Assembly (NCBI GenBank): GCA_017537345.1
Contig: JAFYKY010000012.1
Location: forward strand, 134,665-198,664
Source of the DNA: Clostridia bacterium
Lineage (GTDB): Bacteria; Bacillota; Clostridia; Oscillospirales; CAG-382
Length of the DNA stretch: 64,000 nt
Direction: 5' to 3'
Within the stretch, counting starts at the first letter, position 1. Each line of letters starts with the position of its first letter. Positions 3,340 to 62,689 of this stretch are shown in pieces. The notes beneath the pieces are model-generated. The model made no database searches and was not told the origin of the DNA. It saw only the letters and a list, made by a program, of their open reading frames with translations. The translations under genes were made by a program, and so were the position numbers.

Positions 3340-3442
3340 AATGATGAACCCACCCCAAAAACGCGTGGCGTTTTCGGGGAACCCCGGGAATGAGGAATGA
3401 TGAATGATGAATGTCGGTAGTTTTTTGCGTAACGCAAAAAAC
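3338..3442. repeat. modular repeat (inverted H2 hairpin + heptamer array + module-A hairpin)
   Basis: TTAATGATGAA terminus. CCCCAAAAACGC-gtg-GCGTTTTCGGGG (3353-3379) with CGGGGAACCCCG palindrome. Heptamers AATGAGG AATGATG AATGATG AATGTCG (3389-3416). GTTTTTTGCG-taa-CGCAAAAAAC (3420-3442). Confidence 0.85.
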
Positions 3443-3458
3443 AAATACAATTATTGGC

Positions 3459-3585
3459 GGGACGATAGGGATATCGTCCCCTACGATTATCGAATAGCCG
3501 TGGCTGTTCGCAGACCGTAGGGGACGATGTCCCCACCTGCACCCCACAAAACCTGCGGTTTTGCGGGGAACCCCGCCGTCGTCCC
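3459..3585. repeat. REPIN-like inverted REP doublet; right REP has an H2 module nested in its loop
   Basis: Left REP is GGGACGATA-ggga-TATCGTCCC followed by CTAC (3459-3484). 32-nt linker GATTATCGAATAGCCGTGGCTGTTCGCAGACC. Right REP is GTAG (3517-3520) followed by GGGACGA ... CGTCGTCCC (to 3585), with an inverted H2 at 3539-3574 inside. The same doublet and linker occur at 52205-52288. Confidence 0.85.
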
Positions 3586-3711
3586 GCAAACTGTTCGCAC
3601 GAAACTAATGTCTGTTGCATCGAAAAAGCAAGTTTTTGAAGTGAGCGATGGCAGAATGACGCGTAGAAAAACGCAAAAAAATAAAATCCTTTTTAAGGAT
3701 TTTTTCCTAAT

Positions 3712-7227: not shown

Positions 7228-7255
7228 TTGAATTTATGCAAAAATGTGCTATAAT
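7228..7255 (+). promoter_or_regulatory. strong extended -10 promoter driving the large ncRNA
   Basis: TTGAAT (7228-7233), 16 nt, TGcTATAAT (TG 7247-7248, -10 at 7250-7255). No ORF or RBS follows. Confidence 0.65.
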
Positions 7256-7261
7256 AAATGA

Positions 7262-7882
7262 GCGATGGCGCAGTATTCTAGTTAGCGCGGCGTTTTTGAA
7301 GGCGTGCCTAAAAATACGTCAAACGGCAAATCGATGAAGCTCCTGGTGTTTGCTTTGTACGCCCAGTTCAGGGTGGATGCTGGGAGAGTGGACTGTGGGC
7401 GCACCCCAACGGCATGGGGCGGCTACCCCACTTTCCTTTGAGGCTTTTTCTTCGTGGCGGACCTACACAAACAAAAAAAGGGGGCTACGGGATTAAGATT
7501 AAACCTATCACGCGGTACGACCATTACAGATGCTGTGGATAGATGTAGCCGGCTTTGAGTGGGTCATGGCGGATAACGTTCATGTCGGGGTGAGATTAGC
7601 TACCGAACCCCGAATAAATCGCGTTTGAAATCATGCCTGCAAAAGAAGATAAGAAAACGTTTTGCGCTATGGCGGAAAACGCCTAGACTGTTATCGTGGC
7701 AGATAAACACGTATGGGCACGGTGCGGATTACAGTGCGGACTCATAGGCAATCAAGTCGCGGAACCGGTAACGCTCCGCCTCGGTCTTTAATGGGGAACC
7801 CCTTCATCGGCGACGAGAAGGAGACCGCGGGGAAATCCTACTTGACCGTAAGCCGCAAGGTCTACGTACCGTGCCGCCATTA
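7262..7882 (+). ncRNA. large structured ncRNA, probable OLE (ornate, large, extremophilic) RNA
   Basis: About 620 nt directly after a strong promoter. The only ORF of 60 aa or more is 7713-7916 (67 aa, no RBS). Visibly more G+C-rich than the AT-rich 7100-7255 region. Helices: ATGGCG 7265-7270 / CGCCAT 7875-7880; GGCACGGT 7716-7723 / ACCGTGCC 7868-7875; CGGGGT 7586-7591 / ACCCCG 7607-7612; GCGGA 7759-7763 / TCCGC 7775-7779; CCTCGGTC 7779-7786 / GACCGCGG 7823-7830. Synteny with the oapA-like/dxs/tlyA/nadK/argR/recN cluster. Class not verifiable without a covariance-model search. Confidence 0.55.
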
Positions 7883-7883
7883 T

Positions 7884-7990
7884 TATTCACCCCACAAAAG
7901 GTTTTTTGGCGAGTAGGGGCGTTTCACGAAACGCCCGCAACAGACAAAACATATCACGAAAAAACGCTTTTGCGGGGACCCCGAAAATAT
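7884..7990 (+). repeat. composite element X: inverted H2 hairpin split by an insert carrying a REP variant
   Basis: H2 arms CCCCACAAAAGG (7890-7901) and GCTTTTGCGGGG (7966-7977). Inside is GTAG followed by GGGCGTTTC/GAAACGCCC (7913-7938). A ~90 percent identical copy lies in reverse orientation at 42020-42125. Confidence 0.85.
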
Positions 7991-8227
7991 CAAACAGACA
8001 GTGGGAGCGCGTTCATTCGGCGCAGAAGACACCCCACAAAACTTGCGTTTTGCGGGGACCCCGTGAACCAAAAACGCAAAAACACACTCAAATGTTTCGA
8101 AAACCGTAGGGGACGACGTCCTCGTCGTCCCGCACACCACAAAACATACGGTTTTGCAGGGAACCCCGAAAATATCAAACAGACAGTGGGAACGCATTTT
8201 AGGGGTGGGTTCCTCATTCCTCATTAA
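7991..8227. repeat. REP/H2 mosaic (BIME-like)
   Basis: REP GTAG GGGACGACG-tcct-CGTCGTCCC (8106-8133). Inverted H2 copies at 8032-8057 and 8134-8168. 28-nt direct repeat CCCCGAAAATATCAAACAGACAGTGGGA at 7979-8006 and 8164-8191. Terminal heptamers TTCCTCA TTCCTCA then TTAA (8210-8227). Confidence 0.85.
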
Positions 8228-8241
8228 AAACGGTGGTAAAT

Positions 8242-8706
8242 ATGGTAAAAAACATTTTAAAATATTCCCTGTTTGGATTGACGGCGTCTTTTGCTTTTGC
8301 GGCTTTTACGATCTATCTGCTTGAGCCGAGAGAAAAACTTATCTCGGAACTGCCTAGGTATTGGCAGGTCATCTGGTTGGTGTTGCTTAATATCGTGGGA
8401 ATCTTTTCTCATTTCGCCGCAAGATTTAGCATTCCCCTTGTTGCCCGCGTATCAAAAAAATACAAAAAAGCACCCGTTATATTTTTGGCGGTGTTTGTAG
8501 TTATCGTGTTTGTTCTTTCCGGCGGAAAATACGGCGCCAGACACGGAAGAGGACTGTTTTTTATAATGCACGAAACGGCGGGCATAACTTCGGTTGCCGC
8601 GCTTGATATTATTTTGTTTTTCTTCATAATGCTGATCTCATATTTCGTTATTTGTGTTGTTACGGAATTCAAAAAAACGGAAAAAACAAAAAATGACAAA
8701 CAATAA
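8242..8706 (+). CDS. small polytopic membrane protein (about 4 TM), function unknown
   Basis: ORF 8233-8706. ATG at 8242 is preferred (GGTGG 5 nt upstream). Hydrophobic helices throughout. The 3' end overlaps the RAYT start by 14 nt. Confidence 0.5.
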   Translation: MVKNILKYSLFGLTASFAFAAFTIYLLEPREKLISELPRYWQVIWLVLLNIVGIFSHFAARFSIPLVARVSKKYKKAPVIFLAVFVVIVFVLSGGKYGARHGRGLFFIMHETAGITSVAALDIILFFFIMLISYFVICVVTEFKKTEKTKNDKQ

Positions 8707-9370
8707 ACCACCCCTCCCCAAACGTAAAAACACCCGCTGGGACAAGCAGGACTACTCCCACCCCGGCGAATATATGATAACTGTCTGCACAAAGGATATG
8801 AAACAGATATTATCGAGAATAACCGCCGGTAACCCGCAAACCGTAGGGGACGATATCCCTATCGTCCCGCACCACGTAAACGCACAAACCGTAGGGGACG
8901 ACGTCCTCGTCGTTCCGCACCCCACAAAACCTGCGGTTTTGCAGGGAACCCCGACCGTCCCGCATATCGAACTCACATATTTCGGAAAAATTGCGGATAA
9001 ATATATAAACCAATTAAACGATTTCTACGATAACATCAACGTAATAAAATACGTTATAATGCCGAATCATATACATTTGCTGTTGCAGATACCGGACGGG
9101 ACGACGAGGACGTCGTCCCCTACGAAAACAACTGACGGAACTAAGTGCGAAATCACGCCGTCCCCTATGGGTGAGCGAACAGACGCACGACCCGTTGAAC
9201 ATTCGATAATATCGGATTTTATTTCAACTTTCAAACGTTTCGTTCACCGCGATATCGGCGAGCAGATTTTTCAGCGCTCATATCACGATCACGTTATACG
9301 GGACGAAAACGATATGATCGGGGCTATAAATTATATAGAAAATAATCCACACAGATGGATAGAAAATTAA
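8693..9370 (+). CDS. REP-associated tyrosine transposase (RAYT; IS200/IS605 TnpA-like Y1 HUH enzyme) with in-frame REP insertions
   Basis: Start at ATG 8693 (MTNNKPPLPKRKNTRWDKQDYSHPGEYMITVCTKD). HUH motif VIMPNHIHLLLQ. C-terminal QRSYHDHVIRDENDMIGAINYIENNPHRW. Segments VGDDIPIVP, VGDDVLVVPHPTKPAVLQGTP and GTTRTSSPT are translated repeat hairpins. Confidence 0.8.
   Translation: MTNNKPPLPKRKNTRWDKQDYSHPGEYMITVCTKDMKQILSRITAGNPQTVGDDIPIVPHHVNAQTVGDDVLVVPHPTKPAVLQGTPTVPHIELTYFGKIADKYINQLNDFYDNINVIKYVIMPNHIHLLLQIPDGTTRTSSPTKTTDGTKCEITPSPMGERTDARPVEHSIISDFISTFKRFVHRDIGEQIFQRSYHDHVIRDENDMIGAINYIENNPHRWIEN
8843..8963 (+). repeat. two tandem REPs plus inverted H2 module inside the RAYT coding frame
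   Basis: GTAG GGGACGATA-tccc-TATCGTCCC (8843-8870). GTAG GGGACGACG-tcct-CGTCGTTCC (8891-8918). CACCCCACAAAACCTGCGGTTTTGCAGGGAACCCCG (8918-8953). Partial stem ACCGTCCCGC (8954-8963). Confidence 0.85.
9096..9124 (-). repeat. inverted REP inside the RAYT coding frame
   Basis: GGGACGACG-agga-CGTCGTCCC followed by CTAC (9098-9123). 27 nt identical to the reverse complement of the intergenic REP at 8106-8133. Confidence 0.85.
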
Positions 9371-9372
9371 AT

Positions 9373-9520
9373 TGTGAAGAGAGAAAAGAGAAGAGTGGAA
9401 AGAAACGGAAGATTTTTGCGTAATACGCAAAAATCAACCATAATTCCCGGGGTTCCCCGAAAACGCTGTGCGTTTTTGGGGTGGGTCATTCATCATTCCT
9501 CATTCCTCGTTCCTCATTTA
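9373..9520 (+). repeat. modular repeat (purine heptamers + module A + H2 + pyrimidine heptamers)
   Basis: GTGAAGA GAGAAAA GAGAAGA GTGGAAA GAAACGG (9374-9408). GATTTTTGCG-taata-CGCAAAAATC then AACCAT. CCCCGAAAACGC-tgt-GCGTTTTTGGGG. TCATTCA TCATTCC TCATTCC TCGTTCC TCATTTA (9486-9520). Near-identical copy at 15653-15795. Confidence 0.85.
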
Positions 9521-9569: not shown

Positions 9570-10136
9570 ATGAAAAACATAAAAGAAAAATCCAAACGCC
9601 GTGCGCGGCGGATATGGATAACATTTGCATTTATATTCAGCTTTATAATGACCGCCCTTCTTTCGCTGCTTTCCGGCGAAGCGTTGGAGGATCTTCCCGT
9701 TTGGGCAGCGCTGGCGGTGCTGCTTATCTTTATTTTGCTGGGTATCGTGTTCGATATGATCGGTCTGGCGGTCACCACGGCGGATATTTCCGCCTTCAAC
9801 GCTATGGCGGCGAAAAAAGACCCCGTGGGCAAGCGGGCTGTATGGCTTATCGCCAATGCGGAAAAGGTATCCTCCTTTTGCAACGATATAGTGGGCGATA
9901 TCTGCGGCGTAGTTTCGGGCGCTTCGGCGGCGACCATTGCGGTGGTGCTGTTTTCGGGACTGAGCTATGAGCTTGCGTTCTGGCTCACCCTTTCTCTTAC
10001 CGCTCTGGTTTCCTCCGTCACTGTGGGAGGAAAGGCGCTGGGCAAGAAGGCGGGTATCGATAAAAACAGGGAAATAACCCTTTTATGCGCAAAAATATTA
10101 AGTGTTTTTTCGAAAAAACAAGGAAAGAAAAAGTAA
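9570..10136 (+). CDS. oapA: 4-TM membrane protein, probable OLE-associated protein A
   Basis: 188 aa (about 20 kDa). Basic N-terminus KEKSKRRARR, four hydrophobic helices, Lys-rich tail. Sits immediately upstream of dxs-tlyA-nadK-argR-recN, the position reported for oapA. Assignment is by synteny and architecture only. Confidence 0.5.
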   Translation: MKNIKEKSKRRARRIWITFAFIFSFIMTALLSLLSGEALEDLPVWAALAVLLIFILLGIVFDMIGLAVTTADISAFNAMAAKKDPVGKRAVWLIANAEKVSSFCNDIVGDICGVVSGASAATIAVVLFSGLSYELAFWLTLSLTALVSSVTVGGKALGKKAGIDKNREITLLCAKILSVFSKKQGKKK

Positions 10137-15632: not shown

Positions 15633-15650
15633 TACAATCACGGGTTTTTA
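15621..15650 (+). terminator. rho-independent terminator of recN
   Basis: CCCGTGA (15626-15632) tacaa TCACGGG (15638-15644) then TTTTT. Overlaps the recN stop codon. Confidence 0.75.
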
Positions 15651-15652
15651 TA

Positions 15653-15795
15653 GTGAAGAGAGAAAAGAGAAGAGTGAAAAGAAACGGAAGATTTTTGCGT
15701 ATTACGCAAAAATCAACCATCCCGGGGTTCCCCGCAAAACCGCAGGTTTTGTGGGGTGGGTCATTCATCATTCATCATTCCTCATTCCTCATTAA
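15653..15795 (+). repeat. modular repeat (same composite as 9373-9520)
   Basis: GTGAAGA GAGAAAA GAGAAGA GTGAAAA GAAACGG. GATTTTTGCG-tatta-CGCAAAAATC then AACCAT. CCCCGCAAAACC-gca-GGTTTTGTGGGG. TCATTCA x2, TCATTCC x2. Ends in TTAA (15792-15795). Confidence 0.85.
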
Positions 15796-19202: not shown

Positions 19203-19285
19203 TTAATGAGGAATGATGGTTGATTTTTGTTCTGCGAACAAAAATCTTCCGAAGTTTCTCGTTTCTCGTTTATCGTTCCTCGTTT
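19203..19285. repeat. modular repeat (module A inverted) overlapping the pyrR 3' end
   Basis: TTAATGAGG AATGATG. ATGGTTGATTTTTGTTC-tgc-GAACAAAAATCTTCCGAAG (19216-19254). Heptamers TTTCTCG TTTCTCG TTTATCG TTCCTCG (19255-19282). The pyrR TAA (19270-19272) lies in the third heptamer. Confidence 0.85.
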
Positions 19286-20816: not shown

Positions 20817-21215
20817 ATGGAAATAGCAATTATCGCCAACGATAAGAAAAAAGAGCTTATCACCGAATTCTGCATAGCTTATTGCGGAGTGCTTGCCAAG
20901 CACAATCTCTGTGCAACAGCTACGACAGGAAAATACATAAGCGAAGCAACGGGGCTTAAGGTTACCCGTATGCTGGCAGGCTCTCATGGCGGAGCAGAGC
21001 AGATAGCCGCCCGTATCGCATATAACGAAATAGATCTGGTTATCTTCCTTCGGGACCCTAATTCGGACGCCGAATACGTAGACAATACCCTTCAGGTCAT
21101 CCGTCTGTGCGATAGCCATAATATCCCCGTTGCAACCAATATCGCAACCGCAGAAGCGCTTATCCTCGCTCTCGGCAGAGGAGATCTTGACTGGAGAGAG
21201 ATTCAGAGAAACTAG
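20817..21215 (+). CDS. methylglyoxal synthase-like protein with non-canonical active-site residues
   Basis: 132 aa. Clear MGS fold signature (ATATTGKYISEATGL, DLVIFLRDP, IPVATNIATAEAL), but canonical AHDKKK / GGDQ / PHEPD read ANDKKK / GGAE / EYVDN. Confidence 0.75.
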   Translation: MEIAIIANDKKKELITEFCIAYCGVLAKHNLCATATTGKYISEATGLKVTRMLAGSHGGAEQIAARIAYNEIDLVIFLRDPNSDAEYVDNTLQVIRLCDSHNIPVATNIATAEALILALGRGDLDWREIQRN

Positions 21216-21352
21216 GAACGAGGAACTGGGAACTAGGAACTTCGGAAGATTTTTGCCCCAAAGGCAAAAATCAACCATTCCGGGGTTCCCCGCAAAACCG
21301 CAGGTTTTGTGGGGTGGTTAGTTCATAGTTCATCGTTTATCGTTCATCGTTC
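21210..21352 (+). repeat. modular repeat (full composite) between the mgsA-like gene and hisS
   Basis: AACTAGG AACGAGG AACTGGG AACTAGG AACTTCG (21210-21244). TTCGGAAGATTTTTGCC-ccaaa-GGCAAAAATCAACCATT. CCGGGGTTCCCCGCAAAACC-gca-GGTTTTGTGGGGTGG (21280-21317). AGTTCAT/CGTTCAT-type heptamers to 21352. Confidence 0.85.
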
Positions 21353-21372: not shown

Positions 21373-22632
21373 ATGGAACAAATCAAAAAGCCTCGCGGAA
21401 CCTTGGATATTCTTCCCGAGCAGACTGCCGCTTGGCAGTATATAGAAAAAACAATACGCAAAAAATGTCTTGAATACGGCTTTGGCGAAATACGCTTCCC
21501 CACCTTTGAAGCAACCGAACTTTTCTCCCGCGGTGTGGGCGACACTACCGACGTGGTTCAAAAGGAAATGTACACCTTTAAGGACAGAGATGACCGCAGT
21601 CTGTCACTCCGTCCCGAAGGAACGGCGTGCGTTGTCCGCAGTATGCTGGAAAACGGTCTTTACGCAGGGGCTATGCCTTTAAAGCTGTATTACCTTACCA
21701 ATTTCTTCCGCTATGAAAAGCCTCAGGCAGGCAGATCGAGAGAGTTTTTCCAGTTCGGAACAGAGCTGTTCGGCTCCGAATCCCCTGCGGCGGATGCAAC
21801 GGTCATCTCCCTTGCATACAGCGTGTTCAAGGAATTGGGACTTAAAGACGTGGTGCTTCACATAAATTCCGTGGGCTGTCCCAACTGCCGTCCTCTTTAC
21901 AGAGAGGCGCTGGTAAATTATTTAAGCGGTTATACGGACAAGCTTTGCCCCACCTGCCTTGAAAGACTCGGTAAAAACCCCTTGCGTGTGCTGGATTGCA
22001 AATCTCCCGTTTGCTCGGAGATAGCGAAAAACGCACCCAAGACCACACAGCACCTTTGCGAAGACTGCAAAGAGCATCTGGAAGCTCTTACCGCTATTCT
22101 TGATGCGGCGGAAATTCCTTACGTTATAGATTCCGGCATTGTAAGAGGATTGGATTATTACACCGGCACGGTGTTTGAGTTTATAGACCAGCGTATCGGC
22201 GCTCAGTCCACGGTTTGCGGCGGCGGCAGATACGATGGCTTGGTTGCCCAGCTTGGGGGACCCCAGATGTCCGGCGTAGGATTTGGTATGGGTATTACCC
22301 GTCTTATCGCCTGCTTGGAGCAGGATGGACTTTTGAAGAGCGTGGATACCGCACCGGATATCTATCTCGCTCCCGCAGACAAAGAGGTGTACACAAAGGT
22401 GTTCACTCTCTGCGAACAGCTCCGCGGTATGGGCATAAAGGCAGAAACCGACCTTTGCTCCCGCAGTATAAAAGCGCAAATGAAATATGCGGATAAGATA
22501 CACGCCCGCTACACAGCCGTTATCGGCGGAAACGAAGCGGAAACCGGCGTGGTTACGGTTAAGAATATGCAAGACGGAGCGCGATACGAGGTCAAGCTCA
22601 CGGCTACGGATATTGCTAACGCAATAAAATAA
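21373..22632 (+). CDS. hisS: histidyl-tRNA synthetase
   Basis: 419 aa. PRGTLDILPE, LSLRPEGTA, YYLTNFFRYEKPQAGRSREFFQFG, GGGRYDGL. Confidence 0.95.
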   Translation: MEQIKKPRGTLDILPEQTAAWQYIEKTIRKKCLEYGFGEIRFPTFEATELFSRGVGDTTDVVQKEMYTFKDRDDRSLSLRPEGTACVVRSMLENGLYAGAMPLKLYYLTNFFRYEKPQAGRSREFFQFGTELFGSESPAADATVISLAYSVFKELGLKDVVLHINSVGCPNCRPLYREALVNYLSGYTDKLCPTCLERLGKNPLRVLDCKSPVCSEIAKNAPKTTQHLCEDCKEHLEALTAILDAAEIPYVIDSGIVRGLDYYTGTVFEFIDQRIGAQSTVCGGGRYDGLVAQLGGPQMSGVGFGMGITRLIACLEQDGLLKSVDTAPDIYLAPADKEVYTKVFTLCEQLRGMGIKAETDLCSRSIKAQMKYADKIHARYTAVIGGNEAETGVVTVKNMQDGARYEVKLTATDIANAIK

Positions 22633-22727
22633 CTATGAACGATGAACGATGAACGAGAAACTAATGGAAACCTTTTTTCGCGCACACGCGAAAAAAGCTA
22701 CCGAAGTTCATAGTTCATAGTTTCTAC
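22631..22727 (+). repeat. modular repeat, CGCG subfamily, between hisS and aspS
   Basis: AACTATG AACGATG AACGATG AACGAGA AACTAAT. GGAAACCTTTTTTCGCG-caca-CGCGAAAAAAGCTACCGAAG. GTTCATA GTTCATA GTTTCTA. The hisS TAA (22630-22632) overlaps the first heptamer. Confidence 0.85.
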
Positions 22728-41893: not shown

Positions 41894-41924
41894 AAAAATA
41901 ATCTCCTCTCGAACAAGTTCGTTT

Positions 41925-42125
41925 TTAACGATGAACGATGAACGATAAACGATGAACTTCGGAAGCTTTTTGCACGGCTGTGCAAAAAGCAACCATTAGT
42001 TCATAGTTTATAGTTCATAGTTTTTTTCGGGGTCCCCGAGAAAGCGTTTTTTCGTGATATGTTTCGTCTATTGCGGGCGATTCGTGAATCGCCCCTACTC
42101 ATCAAAAAACCTTTCTTGGGGTGAA
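41925..42125. repeat. compound repeat inside the ymcA-mutS intergenic region
   Basis: TTAACGATG AACGATG AACGATA AACGATG AACTTCG. TTCGGAAGCTTTTTGCAC-ggct-GTGCAAAAAGCAACCATT (41958-41997). AGTTCAT AGTTTAT AGTTCAT. Then element X in reverse (42020-42125) with REP variant GGGCGATTC/GAATCGCCC followed by CTAC (42075-42098). Confidence 0.85.
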
Positions 42126-42127
42126 CA

Positions 42128-42520
42128 TTAATGGCAGCCGCCGCAAGCAGAGCAATCCCCGCCGCAAGAATGCTGGCTTTCGGGAATAACTCTGGACTGG
42201 ATCTCGGAATTAAGCACGTTAAGAAGCTCGTTAAGCTCGTTTTCCGCATTTGCAAGAGCAACCATAACGGGGTTAGCCATAACCTCTTCGTAAAGCTCCT
42301 TCATACGGTTGTCGATCTGCTTAAGCAGCTCTTCGTCCTTGTTTTCGTCTGCCGCAGCCTTTTCATATATCATACGCTGTACGGTGTATTCGTTGATCTT
42401 GGTGGAGAGGGTATCGTCGTTATCAAAGTTTTCCTTTGCCGCTTTGTAGTTAATAACTACCTCGTCCTGTTCAATAGCGTCTGCCAATGCGAGAATGGCG
42501 TTTTTTGTGGTTTCGTTCAT
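42128..42520 (-). CDS. ymcA: YlbF/YmcA-family regulatory protein with Cys-rich tail
   Basis: 130 aa helical protein in the conserved position between miaB and mutS. C-terminus is CGGDCSACGGCH. Confidence 0.65.
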   Translation of the reverse strand: MNETTKNAILALADAIEQDEVVINYKAAKENFDNDDTLSTKINEYTVQRMIYEKAAADENKDEELLKQIDNRMKELYEEVMANPVMVALANAENELNELLNVLNSEIQSRVIPESQHSCGGDCSACGGCH

Positions 42521-44673: not shown

Positions 44674-44689
44674 AGCAAACTCCTTTATG

Positions 44690-44785
44690 TTAACGATGAA
44701 CTATGAACTATGAACGATGAACTATGGTTGATTTTTGTTCTGCGAACAAAAATCTTCATTATTTTTCTTCGTTTATTCATCACTT
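44690..44785. repeat. modular repeat in a divergent promoter region
   Basis: TTAACGATG AACTATG AACTATG AACGATG AACTATG (44690-44726). ATGGTTGATTTTTGTTC-tgc-GAACAAAAATCTTC (44724-44757; 34 nt identical to 19216-19249). Degenerate pyrimidine heptamers follow. Confidence 0.85.
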
Positions 44786-44847
44786 TTTCGCAAAAACTAT
44801 ATTACGGAAAGGAATGATATTTTATTAAAAAATATATAATTTTATTT

Positions 44848-52110: not shown

Positions 52111-52204
52111 CCATATCCCGCTCGCGAAAGACCTTTTCTACAGCGTTTTACCTTCGCTCTCGCTCGGTCATCGAATAGACGATAGTGTAGTGCGAACAAA
52201 TTAC

Positions 52205-52288
52205 GGGACGATGAGGACATCGTCCCCTACGATTATCGAATAGCCGTGGCTGTTTGCAGACCGTAGGGGACGTCGTCCCCGACGTCCC
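52205..52288. repeat. REPIN-like inverted REP doublet
   Basis: GGGACGATG-agga-CATCGTCCC followed by CTAC (52205-52230). The same 32-nt linker as 3485-3516 with 1 substitution. GTAG GGGACGTCG-tccc-CGACGTCCC (52263-52288). Confidence 0.85.
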
Positions 52289-52307
52289 GTAACAAAATAA
52301 AAATGTA

Positions 52308-53131: not shown

Positions 53132-53575
53132 ATGAAAACTTGTACTTTTTTCGGGCACAGCGATGCGCCGAGCGATATTTTAGATAAGCTGTATCTCATT
53201 TTGGAGGATCTGATCGTAAATAAAGACGTAGGTTGCTTTTTGGTCGGCAACCAAGGGGCGTTTGACAGAACGGTTTTACGCACTCTTCGGCTGCTTAAGG
53301 TCGATTATCCTCATATTTTATATTCAGTGGTAATTCCTTACCTTACGTATAAAGAAAATGAATATTATTCGGAAGACGAAACTGTTTTCCCCGGTATATT
53401 GGATACCTGCCCCGAAAAATTTTCCATAGACAGACGTAACAAATGGATGATAAAAGAATCCGATTACGTGGTCTGCTACATAAAATGCGATTTTTCCCGT
53501 TCCGCCCAATATATGGAGATGGCAAAACGCAGAAAAAAGACTGTTATAAACCTGGCACCTTCCGCATTTGATTAA
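53132..53575 (+). CDS. SLOG-fold protein (DUF1273 / YpsA-like)
   Basis: ATG 53132 preferred (GGAG RBS). MKTCTFFGHSD..., VGNQGAFD..., and the RRNKWMIKESDYVVCY pattern are typical of DUF1273. Confidence 0.65.
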   Translation: MKTCTFFGHSDAPSDILDKLYLILEDLIVNKDVGCFLVGNQGAFDRTVLRTLRLLKVDYPHILYSVVIPYLTYKENEYYSEDETVFPGILDTCPEKFSIDRRNKWMIKESDYVVCYIKCDFSRSAQYMEMAKRRKKTVINLAPSAFD

Positions 53576-53577
53576 TT

Positions 53578-53680
53578 GTTTTTTGCCTCGCAAAAAACTA
53601 CCGAAATTCCCGGGGTTCCCCGCAAAACCGCAGGTTTTGTGGGGTGGGTTCCTCATTCATCATTTATCATTCATCATTAA
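53578..53680 (+). repeat. modular repeat (module A inverted + H2 + heptamers)
   Basis: GTTTTTTGC-ctc-GCAAAAAAC then TACCGAA. CCCGGGGTTCCCCGCAAAACC-gca-GGTTTTGTGGGGTGGG. TTCCTCA TTCATCA TTTATCA TTCATCA TTAA (to 53680). Confidence 0.85.
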
Positions 53681-53711
53681 AAAATCCTTGCTTAACAGCA
53701 AGGATTTTTTG
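53679..53711. terminator. bidirectional rho-independent terminator
   Basis: AAAAAATCCTTGCT-taac-AGCAAGGATTTTTT. Contains the stop codon of the minus-strand M48 gene. Confidence 0.75.
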
Positions 53712-54924: not shown

Positions 54925-54941
54925 AATATATTCTCCCATTG

Positions 54942-55037
54942 TTAACGATGAACTATGAACTATGAACTTTGGAAGATTTTTGCCCTTGTGGGCAAAAATC
55001 AACCATTAGTTTCTCGTTCATCGTTCCTCGTTCATAG
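54942..55037. repeat. modular repeat between the MATE and M48 genes
   Basis: TTAACGATG AACTATG AACTATG AACTTTG. TTGGAAGATTTTTGCCC-ttgt-GGGCAAAAATCAACCATT. AGTTTCT CGTTCAT CGTTCCT CGTTCAT. Confidence 0.85.
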
Positions 55038-55039
55038 TT

Positions 55040-62566: not shown

Positions 62567-62584
62567 AGTAAATTCCTCTCTTTT

Positions 62585-62689
62585 TTAATGATGAACTATA
62601 AACTATGAACTTCGGTAGCTTTTTTCGCGAATAAACGCGAAAAAAGGTTTCCATTCGTTCCTCGTTTCTCGTTCCTAGTTCCTCGTTAA
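62585..62689. repeat. modular repeat, CGCG subfamily, between carB and pyrK; bounded by TTAA
   Basis: TTAATGATGAACTATAAACTATGAAC. TTCGGTAGCTTTTTTCGCG-aataaa-CGCGAAAAAAGGTTTCCATT. CGTTCCT CGTTTCT CGTTCCT AGTTCCT CG TTAA. Termini TTAATGATGAACT and TTAACGAGGAACT are inverted repeats. Confidence 0.85.

Follow-up and report, generated by a model that had tools for sequence, protein, structure and literature searches.

A composite hairpin built from H2 and REP-type repeats beside an OLE RNA gene in a gut Clostridia genome

Repetitive extragenic palindromic (REP) sequences, the bacterial interspersed mosaic elements (BIMEs) and REP doublets forming hairpins (REPINs) that contain them, and the REP-associated tyrosine transposases (RAYTs) are the closest described counterparts of the repeats considered here (Nunvar 2010, PMC2817692; Bertels & Rainey 2011, PMC3116915; Ton-Hoang 2012, PMC3333891; Corneloup 2021, PMC8266576). 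The DNA analyzed, referred to as the window, is a 64,000-nt stretch of contig JAFYKY010000012.1 from a Clostridia genome, and its subject is element X, a composite palindrome located directly downstream of an OLE RNA gene. In this element, a hairpin of a repeat family termed H2 carries within its apical loop a module tipped with a REP-type hairpin. The window resembles the described REP/RAYT systems in its GTAG-tagged palindromes of about 29 nt, its inverted doublets with a conserved spacer, a nearby Y1 HUH gene and its intergenic mosaic clusters. It differs in that the described cases come mostly from Proteobacteria whereas this lineage belongs to the Clostridia, in that the REPs lie in frame inside the RAYT-like open reading frame (ORF) instead of flanking it, in that untagged H2 hairpins are interleaved with the REPs, and in that the protein falls below the NCBIfam equivalog cutoff.

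Nested REPs are already known. Di Nocera et al. (2013) described REPs and REP dimers embedded in other palindromes, longer or smaller, from Anabaena variabilis, Thermomicrobium roseum and Halothiobacillus neapolitanus, as well as REPs located inside ORFs; in the T. roseum genome, the target palindrome was reported to be present in hundreds of copies. The hairpin-in-hairpin layout of these cases is that of X, and the T. roseum palindrome copies parallel the free H2 hairpins of the window. What differs here is that nesting occurs both ways, that the host palindrome is an untagged and widespread repeat family, that the setting is a gut Clostridia genome beside OLE, and that orthologous sites are found in filled, empty and flipped states. 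REPs also serve as preferred landing sites for insertion sequences (Tobes and Pareja, 2006, PMC1525189; ISPpu9, PMC8450116), but these are full insertion sequences with their own transposase, whereas H2 is a 36-nt hairpin without a linked gene.

Structure and age of element X

Copy 1 of element X (7887-7983, plus strand) is a palindrome of three tiers: the outer stem is of the H2 type, T6/A6 lengthens it, and a REP-type hairpin forms the apex. Its left H2 arm, CCCCACAAAAGG (7890-7901), places an A at pair 5 opposite a C, and its right arm, GCTTTTGCGGGG (7966-7977), is followed by the H2 tail ACCCCG (7978-7983). The 64-nt module between the arms (7902-7965) lengthens the stem by TTTTTT...AAAAAA and contains, at 7913-7939 on the plus strand, the GTAG-tagged REP-type hairpin GTAGGGGCGTTTCACGAAACGCCCGCA, which can be read as GTAG GGGCGTTT CACG AAACGCCC GCA and represents a stem variant seen only inside X. 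DNA folding predicted the nested hairpin on both strands. Copy 2 lies on the minus strand at 42028-42124 and carries at 42072-42098 the sole other copy of the inner hairpin in the window (chance expectation 0). The two copies are inverted relative to each other and share 89% identity over 115 nt (7873-7987 versus 42024-42138). Thus, the arms 64 nt apart, the enclosed GTAG hairpin and a recurrence near 42020-42125, as proposed in the first-pass annotation, were all recovered.

The parent family of the outer stem is represented in the window by about 14 copies or variants with the core CGGGGTTCCCCGCAAAACC-GCA-GGTTTTGTGGGGTG. They follow the form G4-N1-2-C4-(G/A)-C-A4 ... T4-G-(T/C)-G4-TG, in which a mismatch at pair 5 is conserved, appearing in nearly all copies as G.T on one strand and A.C on the other. 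The arms of X exhibit all five features of this form, namely the CCCC/GGGG foot, the pair-5 mismatch, the A4/T4 tract, GGGG-N1-2-CCCC and the TG/CA end that constitutes the head of the hairpin, and the ACCCCG tail completes the H2 hallmarks. A search for CCCCRCAAAA-N50-80-TTTTGYGGGG gave one match in the window compared to none in 100 dinucleotide-preserving shuffles. The parent family of the inner hairpin consists of units of about 29 nt with GTAG, a 9-bp stem, a TCCT or TCCC loop and a GCA tail. The canonical form, GTAG GGGACGACG TCCT CGTCGTCCC GCA, was found at 8106, 8843, 8891, 3517 and 52263 and inverted at 3458, 9097 and 52204. With four more in 18 kb of flanking sequence, the eight REPs of the window add up to a dense set of 12 in about 82 kb, three of them inside the RAYT-like ORF. 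Both the canonical units and the inner hairpin of X are imperfect palindromes of 20-40 nt with an unpaired 5' GTAG, as expected of GTAG-tagged REPs. In element X, a 64-nt module ending in a REP-type hairpin consequently fills the apical loop of an H2 hairpin. The two copies of X represent a single nesting event, and the identity and history of the composite can be stated with good confidence. X sits in a BIME-like mosaic of three repeat families, the GTAG-tagged REPs, H2 and the T repeats described below.

The first base of copy 2 lies 3 nt after the stop codon of ylbF and its CCCC foot 7 nt after it, and the site was compared across relatives. Sequences from other genomes are given L-numbers, each denoting a contig or locus; L124, L125, L126 and L132 derive from related metagenome-assembled genomes (MAGs). 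In L127, where YlbF is 96% identical, X is present after ylbF. In L131, with a YlbF of 78% identity, an intact short-loop H2, CCCCACAAAGCC-CAAA-GGCTTTGCAGGG-ACCC, is found in the orientation of X and with its CCCC foot likewise 7 nt after the ylbF stop codon. The outgroup therefore carries a plain H2 where the window has X, and the intact, empty version of the arms that the first-pass annotation suggested looking for in relatives exists. L128 (YlbF 88% identical) retains after ylbF only CCTCAAGAAAA, which matches the copy-2-specific arm CCCCAAGAAAG, and L129 and L130 (84% identical) show neither X nor H2 at this position.

At the other locus, X is located directly 3' of OLE in three species, represented by the window, L125 and L124. 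While OLE is 97% identical across the three (orthologues at L124:3209-3855 and L125:2669-3315), X shares 93% identity with the window in L125 and 83% in L124, and dxs 90% and 87%, respectively. The spacer flanking X has been rearranged between the species, and X stays in place. Pairing was examined in four distinct X sequences, compared with 500 shuffles and with slid registers. In the true register, 99% of cells pair, versus 45-68% in the slid controls, and none of the 500 shuffles reached the real value. In five pairs of the stem both partners have changed, in no pair just one of them, and the A.C mismatch is invariant across the four sequences. These findings lead to the conclusion that X is old, vertically inherited and under constraint to stay paired; it is not a fresh insertion and therefore does not constitute direct evidence of recent mobility.

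The tag of the inner hairpin has decayed to GCAG in the X of L125. In L124 (L124:3866-3895, compared with window 7913-7939), the REP tags of the inner hairpin are swapped (TGC-stem-loop-stem-CTAT), with the orientation of the loop unchanged and two stem pairs altered compensatorily. This swap is neither a simple inversion nor simple drift.

Across the sequences searched, X is known at two loci only, after OLE and after ylbF. No further X and no free X-type REP variant was found in about 920 kb of DNA examined or in the 18 kb flanking the window, and an X-specific 29-mer had no match in JGI metagenome contigs. A search of other genomes for H2 hairpins with long loops returned only tandem H2 pairs and no X-like composites. 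Found at these two loci only, X is not an actively spreading unit. The idea that X moved together with flanking DNA, based on the likeness of GCCGCCATTATTATTCA and GCTGCCATTAATGTTCA upstream of the copies, was rejected: the former is part of the OLE consensus tail and the latter a conserved ylbF coding sequence, also present in relatives without X.

REP and H2 modules at other sites

The REP units also occur as inverted pairs with a conserved, repeated spacer, the arrangement that defines REPINs. Four such doublets were identified (3458-3588 and 52204-52291, both on the plus strand, as well as L150:880-965 and L150:7180-7265), sharing the form CGGGACGAT...CCCCTAC-N31-GTAGGGGACG. In the first of them, the second REP (3517-3533 and 3577-3588) is split by a 43-nt insert (3534-3576) and reads GTAG GGGACGATG TCCC [43-nt insert] CGTCGTCCC GCA. 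The other three, including the "empty" paralogue at 52204-52291, are intact. The insert contains a 36-nt H2 core (3540-3575) that is 100% complementary to copies at 15723, 21281 and 53611. It had been taken for an H2 inserted in the loop of the REP; the splitting of the REP over 3517-3588 by an H2 with exact matches elsewhere stands, whereas the site does not lie cleanly in the loop, as the H2 is situated between loop and 3' arm, accompanied by seven extra bases (six on its 5' side, one on its 3' side).

A RAYT-like gene for a Y1 (HUH) transposase lies 0.7 kb downstream of X (8693-9370, plus strand) and carries the motifs HIHLL and QRSYHDHVIRDE; HUH and Tyr motifs are present. Among its 1387 homologues, two are named RayT by the source (JGI), and its match to PF01797 is weak. 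Two tandem REPs within the ORF (8843-8871 and 8891-8919, plus strand) are translated in frame as TVGDD..VP, and an inverted REP (9097-9125, minus strand) just after the HUH motif encodes GTTRTSSPT. In this ORF, the peptide (T)VGDD..VP from the forward REP follows the first conserved block, and G..RT..PT from the inverted REP follows the HUH motif directly; both motifs are conserved in the distant homologues named RayT. Judged from these sequences, this RAYT-like family appears to carry the cognate REP pair within the gene and not on either side of it. Next to the second REP, an H2 (8918-8953) and a repeated piece of the REP 3' arm, ACCGTCCCGCA, together span 8918-8964 (plus strand) and make up a 45-nt in-frame indel (8920-8964). 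Some relatives likewise have an H2-like insert beside the second REP inside the gene, and close homologues vary from 164 to 265 aa owing to REP- and H2-encoded insertions. Palindromes inserted in frame into ORFs have been described for Rickettsia palindromic elements and intragenic REPs (cited in PMC3733652). As in those cases the ORF stays open, but here the host gene is a putative transposase and the encoded peptides (VG..V..P and G..RT..PT) are conserved across the family.

Comparison of orthologous sites demonstrates that H2 and REP modules have been gained, lost, tandemly duplicated and flipped in place. The window, L125 and L132 contain the 45-nt in-frame block, L124 and L126 lack it, and close protein homologues divide into six with the block and eight without. 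Direct repeats of 9 nt in the window and 15 nt in L132 surround the H2 of this block. The L132 hairpin is the reverse complement of the one in the window, loop included, between unchanged flanks, which is what recombination between the palindrome arms would give. The heptamer-flanked T repeat that follows the RAYT-like gene is free of H2 in L132, holds one copy in the window (an H2 variant, 9445-9487, plus strand) and two in tandem in L126, with clean ends and at most 2 nt duplicated. Finally, an 80-nt segment that includes an intact H2 at 8030-8063 (7984-8063, plus strand) is bounded by the 16-nt direct repeat TTTTGCGGGGACCCCG and is absent from the L125 spacer. In L124 this block is found past the RAYT-like gene, whereas in the window it precedes oapA. 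The claim of past mobility thus holds, as it can draw on filled and empty orthologous sites and on the intact paralogues of the split doublet.

The first-pass annotation had further concluded that each family inserts into or next to the loop of the other. In the window, nesting amounts to one event per direction, with one H2 in a REP stem and one REP-type hairpin, in the two X copies, in an H2 loop, and the general statement is not supported in this form. Of the roughly 14 H2 hairpins, a single one interrupts a REP stem, three adjoin the 3' end of a REP, overlapping it by 2 nt (CA), and about five are located inside T repeats at ...CCAT(AAT)^TC; most are thus found beside a REP 3' end or in T repeats. 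At 8133-8168 (plus strand), an H2 is fused to the 3' tail of the canonical REP at 8106-8134 (plus strand), the dinucleotide CA being shared. The abutting arrangements reported at this position and inside the RAYT-like gene are both present; the junctions 8106-8168 and 8891-8953 are, however, 94% identical duplicates, not independent, and therefore count as a single event. A second H2 in opposite orientation was tentatively read from the sequence at 8160-8212 (plus strand). It shares the palindrome GGGAACCCC, has a 22-nt loop insert (CCCCGAAAAT ... ATTTTAGGGG TGGG), and at its right end matches the H2 at 53636 with 90% identity. An intact H2 inside a T repeat is found at 15720-15760 (plus strand), with sister copies at 21279-21318 and 53607-53650. 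Relative to neighboring genes, H2 copies occur in both orientations.

In other genomes, about 4-7% of H2-like hairpins among the matches listed are situated in the apical loop of a larger hairpin, an enrichment of 5-9x over controls. When a host stem of at least 9 pairs within 10 nt of both ends was demanded, 5 of the 119 hairpins listed qualified, against a rate of 0.46% in controls whose flanks were mismatched. Among the hosts are terminator-like stems in L068 and L095; three Dehalococcoidales MAGs provide further cases, which probably represent one composite family. Targeting of hairpin loops, as originally proposed, is consequently supported in part: nesting is enriched but concerns a minority of H2 copies, and the more pronounced pattern in the window is a position beside the 3' end of a REP.

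The H2 pattern was also scanned for in one genome per species, which yielded at least 120 contigs; most H2-bearing contigs among the matches listed are Oscillospirales MAGs. Within 123 distinct matches listed, an upstream GGGG not imposed by the pattern was observed in 83-92%, the following base is a pyrimidine in 80%, and covarying pairs, mostly closed by C-G, lengthen the stem in 101. Left flanks are A/T-rich and not fixed. H2 therefore belongs to a large and real hairpin family present in many Oscillospirales MAGs. Clustering of all ORFs of at least 100 aa within 1.5 kb of H2 matches at 120 loci revealed no ORF family at more than four loci and none that was transposase-like. The candidate explanation of H2 as the end of an autonomous insertion sequence was rejected, as no ORF recurs beside it across these loci. 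Nor does H2 resemble miniature inverted-repeat elements of the DDE type, since its junction repeats (at most 2, 9 and 15 nt) have no fixed length. In viral contigs, 17 H2-like matches were found, all of the "...GGGG AGAGGAGG" subtype and uninformative on mechanism. Many H2-like hairpins in other Oscillospiraceae and in prophage-like contigs (for example L014, L024, L052, L054, L059, L139, L142) are followed by a conserved purine-rich tail, AGAGGAGGNNCANNGGAGCG..., and hairpin and tail may be parts of a longer repeat or RNA unit. Downstream of these purine-tailed hairpins, no conserved ORF was found. A literature search with sequence words returned unrelated primer matches only.

Possible mechanism and rival explanations

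Taken as a whole, the observations are explained best, though by a modest preference, by a composite repeat whose modules would have moved as folded single strands. A specific mechanism driven by an enzyme can be put forward only tentatively, with the activity predicted from sequence. According to this proposal, the modules would be handled as folded single strands and a hairpin-specific HUH enzyme of the RAYT type would cut at the foot of a REP or in its 3' flank. The cut DNA would be rejoined wherever a partner is single-stranded, as in loops and at hairpin feet, and joining at these places would account for the nesting and for the abutting arrangements. Direct repeats left at the junctions would allow precise loss, and recombination between two arms could flip a hairpin. 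Recognition of GTAG and of stem irregularities on single-stranded DNA has been described for TnpA-REP enzymes (PMC8266576).

The junctions and the protein itself qualify this proposal. HUH transposition leaves no target duplication, and elements of the IS200/IS605 type, whose hairpins with a stem irregularity are recognized on one DNA strand, insert in this manner. The H2 in the T repeat fits such an insertion. However, H2 is a single hairpin without left and right ends, its flanks are not fixed and no fixed 4-5-nt target was seen, no TnpA or other recurrent ORF lies near it, and some of its junctions show direct repeats of 9-15 nt; H2 can therefore not be classed as an IS200/IS605-derived hairpin. 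Several observations weigh against movement of the modules as folded strands. The RAYT-like ORF matches NF047646 (REP-associated tyrosine transposase) with an E-value of 1.5e-14 and 54 bits, below the curated cutoff of 80. H2 has neither a GTAG tag nor, by the ORF clustering at 120 loci, an associated gene. The 9-nt and 15-nt repeats around the H2 in the RAYT-like gene are at odds with the absence of duplication expected of HUH enzymes and fit recombination or template switching as well as transposition. No free-standing X-type REP variant turned up in about 100 kb of DNA belonging to this species and its close relatives; its arrival by insertion is therefore only inferred. Moreover, gene conversion instead of transposition may link the two X copies, and most H2 copies lie outside loops.

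Among the alternatives, the one that survives best dispenses with a transposase altogether, and we consider it possible but distinctly less probable than the favored reading as a whole. Here, template switching and slippage during replication and homologous or microhomology recombination among palindromes would create the observed arrangements, as polymerases stall and switch at loops and hairpin feet. This would readily produce the direct repeats of 9 and 15 nt in the RAYT-like gene and of 16 nt around the 80-nt segment (7984-8063), and likewise the CA shared by REP tail and H2 head, the tandem H2 duplicate of L126 and the hairpin flipped in place in L132, while the clean ends of the H2 in the T repeat, with a duplication of at most 2 nt, do not fit. 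The displacement of a composite block from upstream of oapA in the window to downstream of the RAYT-like gene in L124 and the lack of an H2-linked gene at 120 loci are equally in its favor, but the 36-nt core shared at 100% identity by four dispersed sites suggests that it was recently copied into new positions, and an intact-looking RAYT-like gene with its HUH and Tyr motifs is kept in many relatives.

A second alternative regards X primarily as a structured element with a function at the 3' end of the OLE and ylbF transcripts, where it might block exonucleases or serve as a signal for processing, roles that have been proposed for REPs of E. coli. X would then be maintained by selection on the RNA, and its repeat ancestry would be incidental. 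Its position supports this, as copy 1 begins 9 nt past the closing of the last OLE helix in all three species and copy 2 directly follows ylbF, as do the five compensatory pair changes without a one-sided change and the retention of X while the flanking spacer was rearranged. Yet the A.C mismatch lies on the transcribed strand and the wobble-compatible G.U on the antisense strand, no U-tract follows X, H2 hairpins are found in both orientations relative to neighboring genes, X was lost or reduced after ylbF in L128 and L129, and X (83-93%) diverges faster than OLE (97%). As the primary account it is unlikely; a role of X at the RNA level is possible and compatible with its repeat ancestry. One variant, an intrinsic terminator, was rejected: X is not called as a terminator on the sense strand of OLE or ylbF, and the tails GAAAATATC and GAAAAAAAC lack a U-tract. 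Finally, chance likeness between hairpins with G/C-rich feet, conceivable given the shortness and low complexity of the two families with their C4/G4 and A4/T4 runs, is refuted by the shuffles, by the CA head, the ACCCCG tail outside the hairpin and the position-5 mismatch shared with X, by the intact H2 at the orthologous L131 site and by the H2 core of the split REP with its three identical copies, so that the split arms can be treated as homologous to intact H2 and REP stems, as the first-pass annotation had assumed.

The movement of folded modules can be extended to a broader and decidedly speculative picture. H2 would be an undescribed and very small (about 36 nt) mobile hairpin distributed across many Oscillospirales genera and possibly beyond, which enters DNA left single-stranded in a folded strand, at the loops and feet of hairpins such as REPs and terminator-like stems, and can flip in place. 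X would be a domesticated product of it, retained as a conserved 3' structure for OLE, and the RAYT-like gene with its in-frame REPs would be the engine.

Genomic neighborhood and meaning of the composite

The Clostridia genome from which the window derives is of the ruminant-gut type, and ENA and Logan assemblies contain identical or near-identical contigs; a MAG from yak rectum (L090, L122) shares the repeats. The OLE RNA gene upstream of X (7249-7896, plus strand) matches Rfam RF01071 over its full length with 385 bits, its last helix closing near 7878, and is preceded by a promoter-like TTGAAT-16-TATAAT with upstream TG (7228-7255). OLE was the sole family at or above the gathering threshold in an Rfam scan of the window, and a permissive threshold applied to an H2/T repeat gave nothing meaningful. 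Downstream of OLE and X follow an oapA-like membrane ORF (8242-8706), the RAYT-like ORF, an ORF of 188 aa and dxs, of which oapA-like ORFs and dxs are usual neighbors of OLE. The 188-aa ORF (9570-10136), located between the RAYT-like gene and dxs, is conserved and syntenic in L124 and L125. Its matches are all weak (CNNM N-terminal domain, SLATT); it could encode a further membrane protein associated with OLE. Copy 2 of X has ylbF upstream and, downstream, a heptamer-flanked repeat followed by mutS. GC skew is flat across the window.

The window, L124 and L125 have the RAYT-like gene, with its bracketing T repeats, between oapA and dxs; in L126 (4001-4537) and L132 (3001-3660), the gene is found in the dnaA-dnaN-recF-gyrB region. 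The gene or cassette has consequently changed locus within the clade. In L124, it follows directly after OLE and X (L124:3855-4001), without the intervening oapA ORF that is present in the window and L125.

The T repeats form the third family of the mosaic. They consist of a central A/T-rich hairpin (e.g., GATTTTTGCG-loop-CGCAAAAATC) between inverted heptamer arrays, with heptamers of the GAACGAT/GAACTAT and GAGGAAT/GATGAAT types on both sides. T repeats were identified at 2405-2500, 3340-3447, 9371-9520, 15650-15793, 19205-19285, 21206-21351, 22627-22722, 41923-42022, 44681-44787, 53573-53681, 54933-55039 and 62576-62687, across many intergenic regions. About five hold an H2 beside the central hairpin, and none has an Rfam match.

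These repeats call for caution in annotation, as they produce in-frame insertions and spurious ORFs. The ORFs of 118 aa (7871-8227, plus strand) and 113 aa (7883-8224, minus strand) that cross the repeat cluster next to X are almost certainly artefacts of its G/C-rich palindromes. The spread of REP-type hairpins is still described as poorly understood (PMC8266576). The clade examined provides natural before/after pairs with exact junctions, including the H2 present or absent in the RAYT-like ORF, T repeats with zero, one or two H2 copies, plain and loop-filled H2 hairpins, and a flip. Such pairs permit tests of single-strand cut-and-join against template switching. RAYT/REP systems appear to be present in gut Clostridia. 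The conserved composite hairpin that follows OLE RNA in this clade bears on how the 3' end of the OLE transcript is defined.

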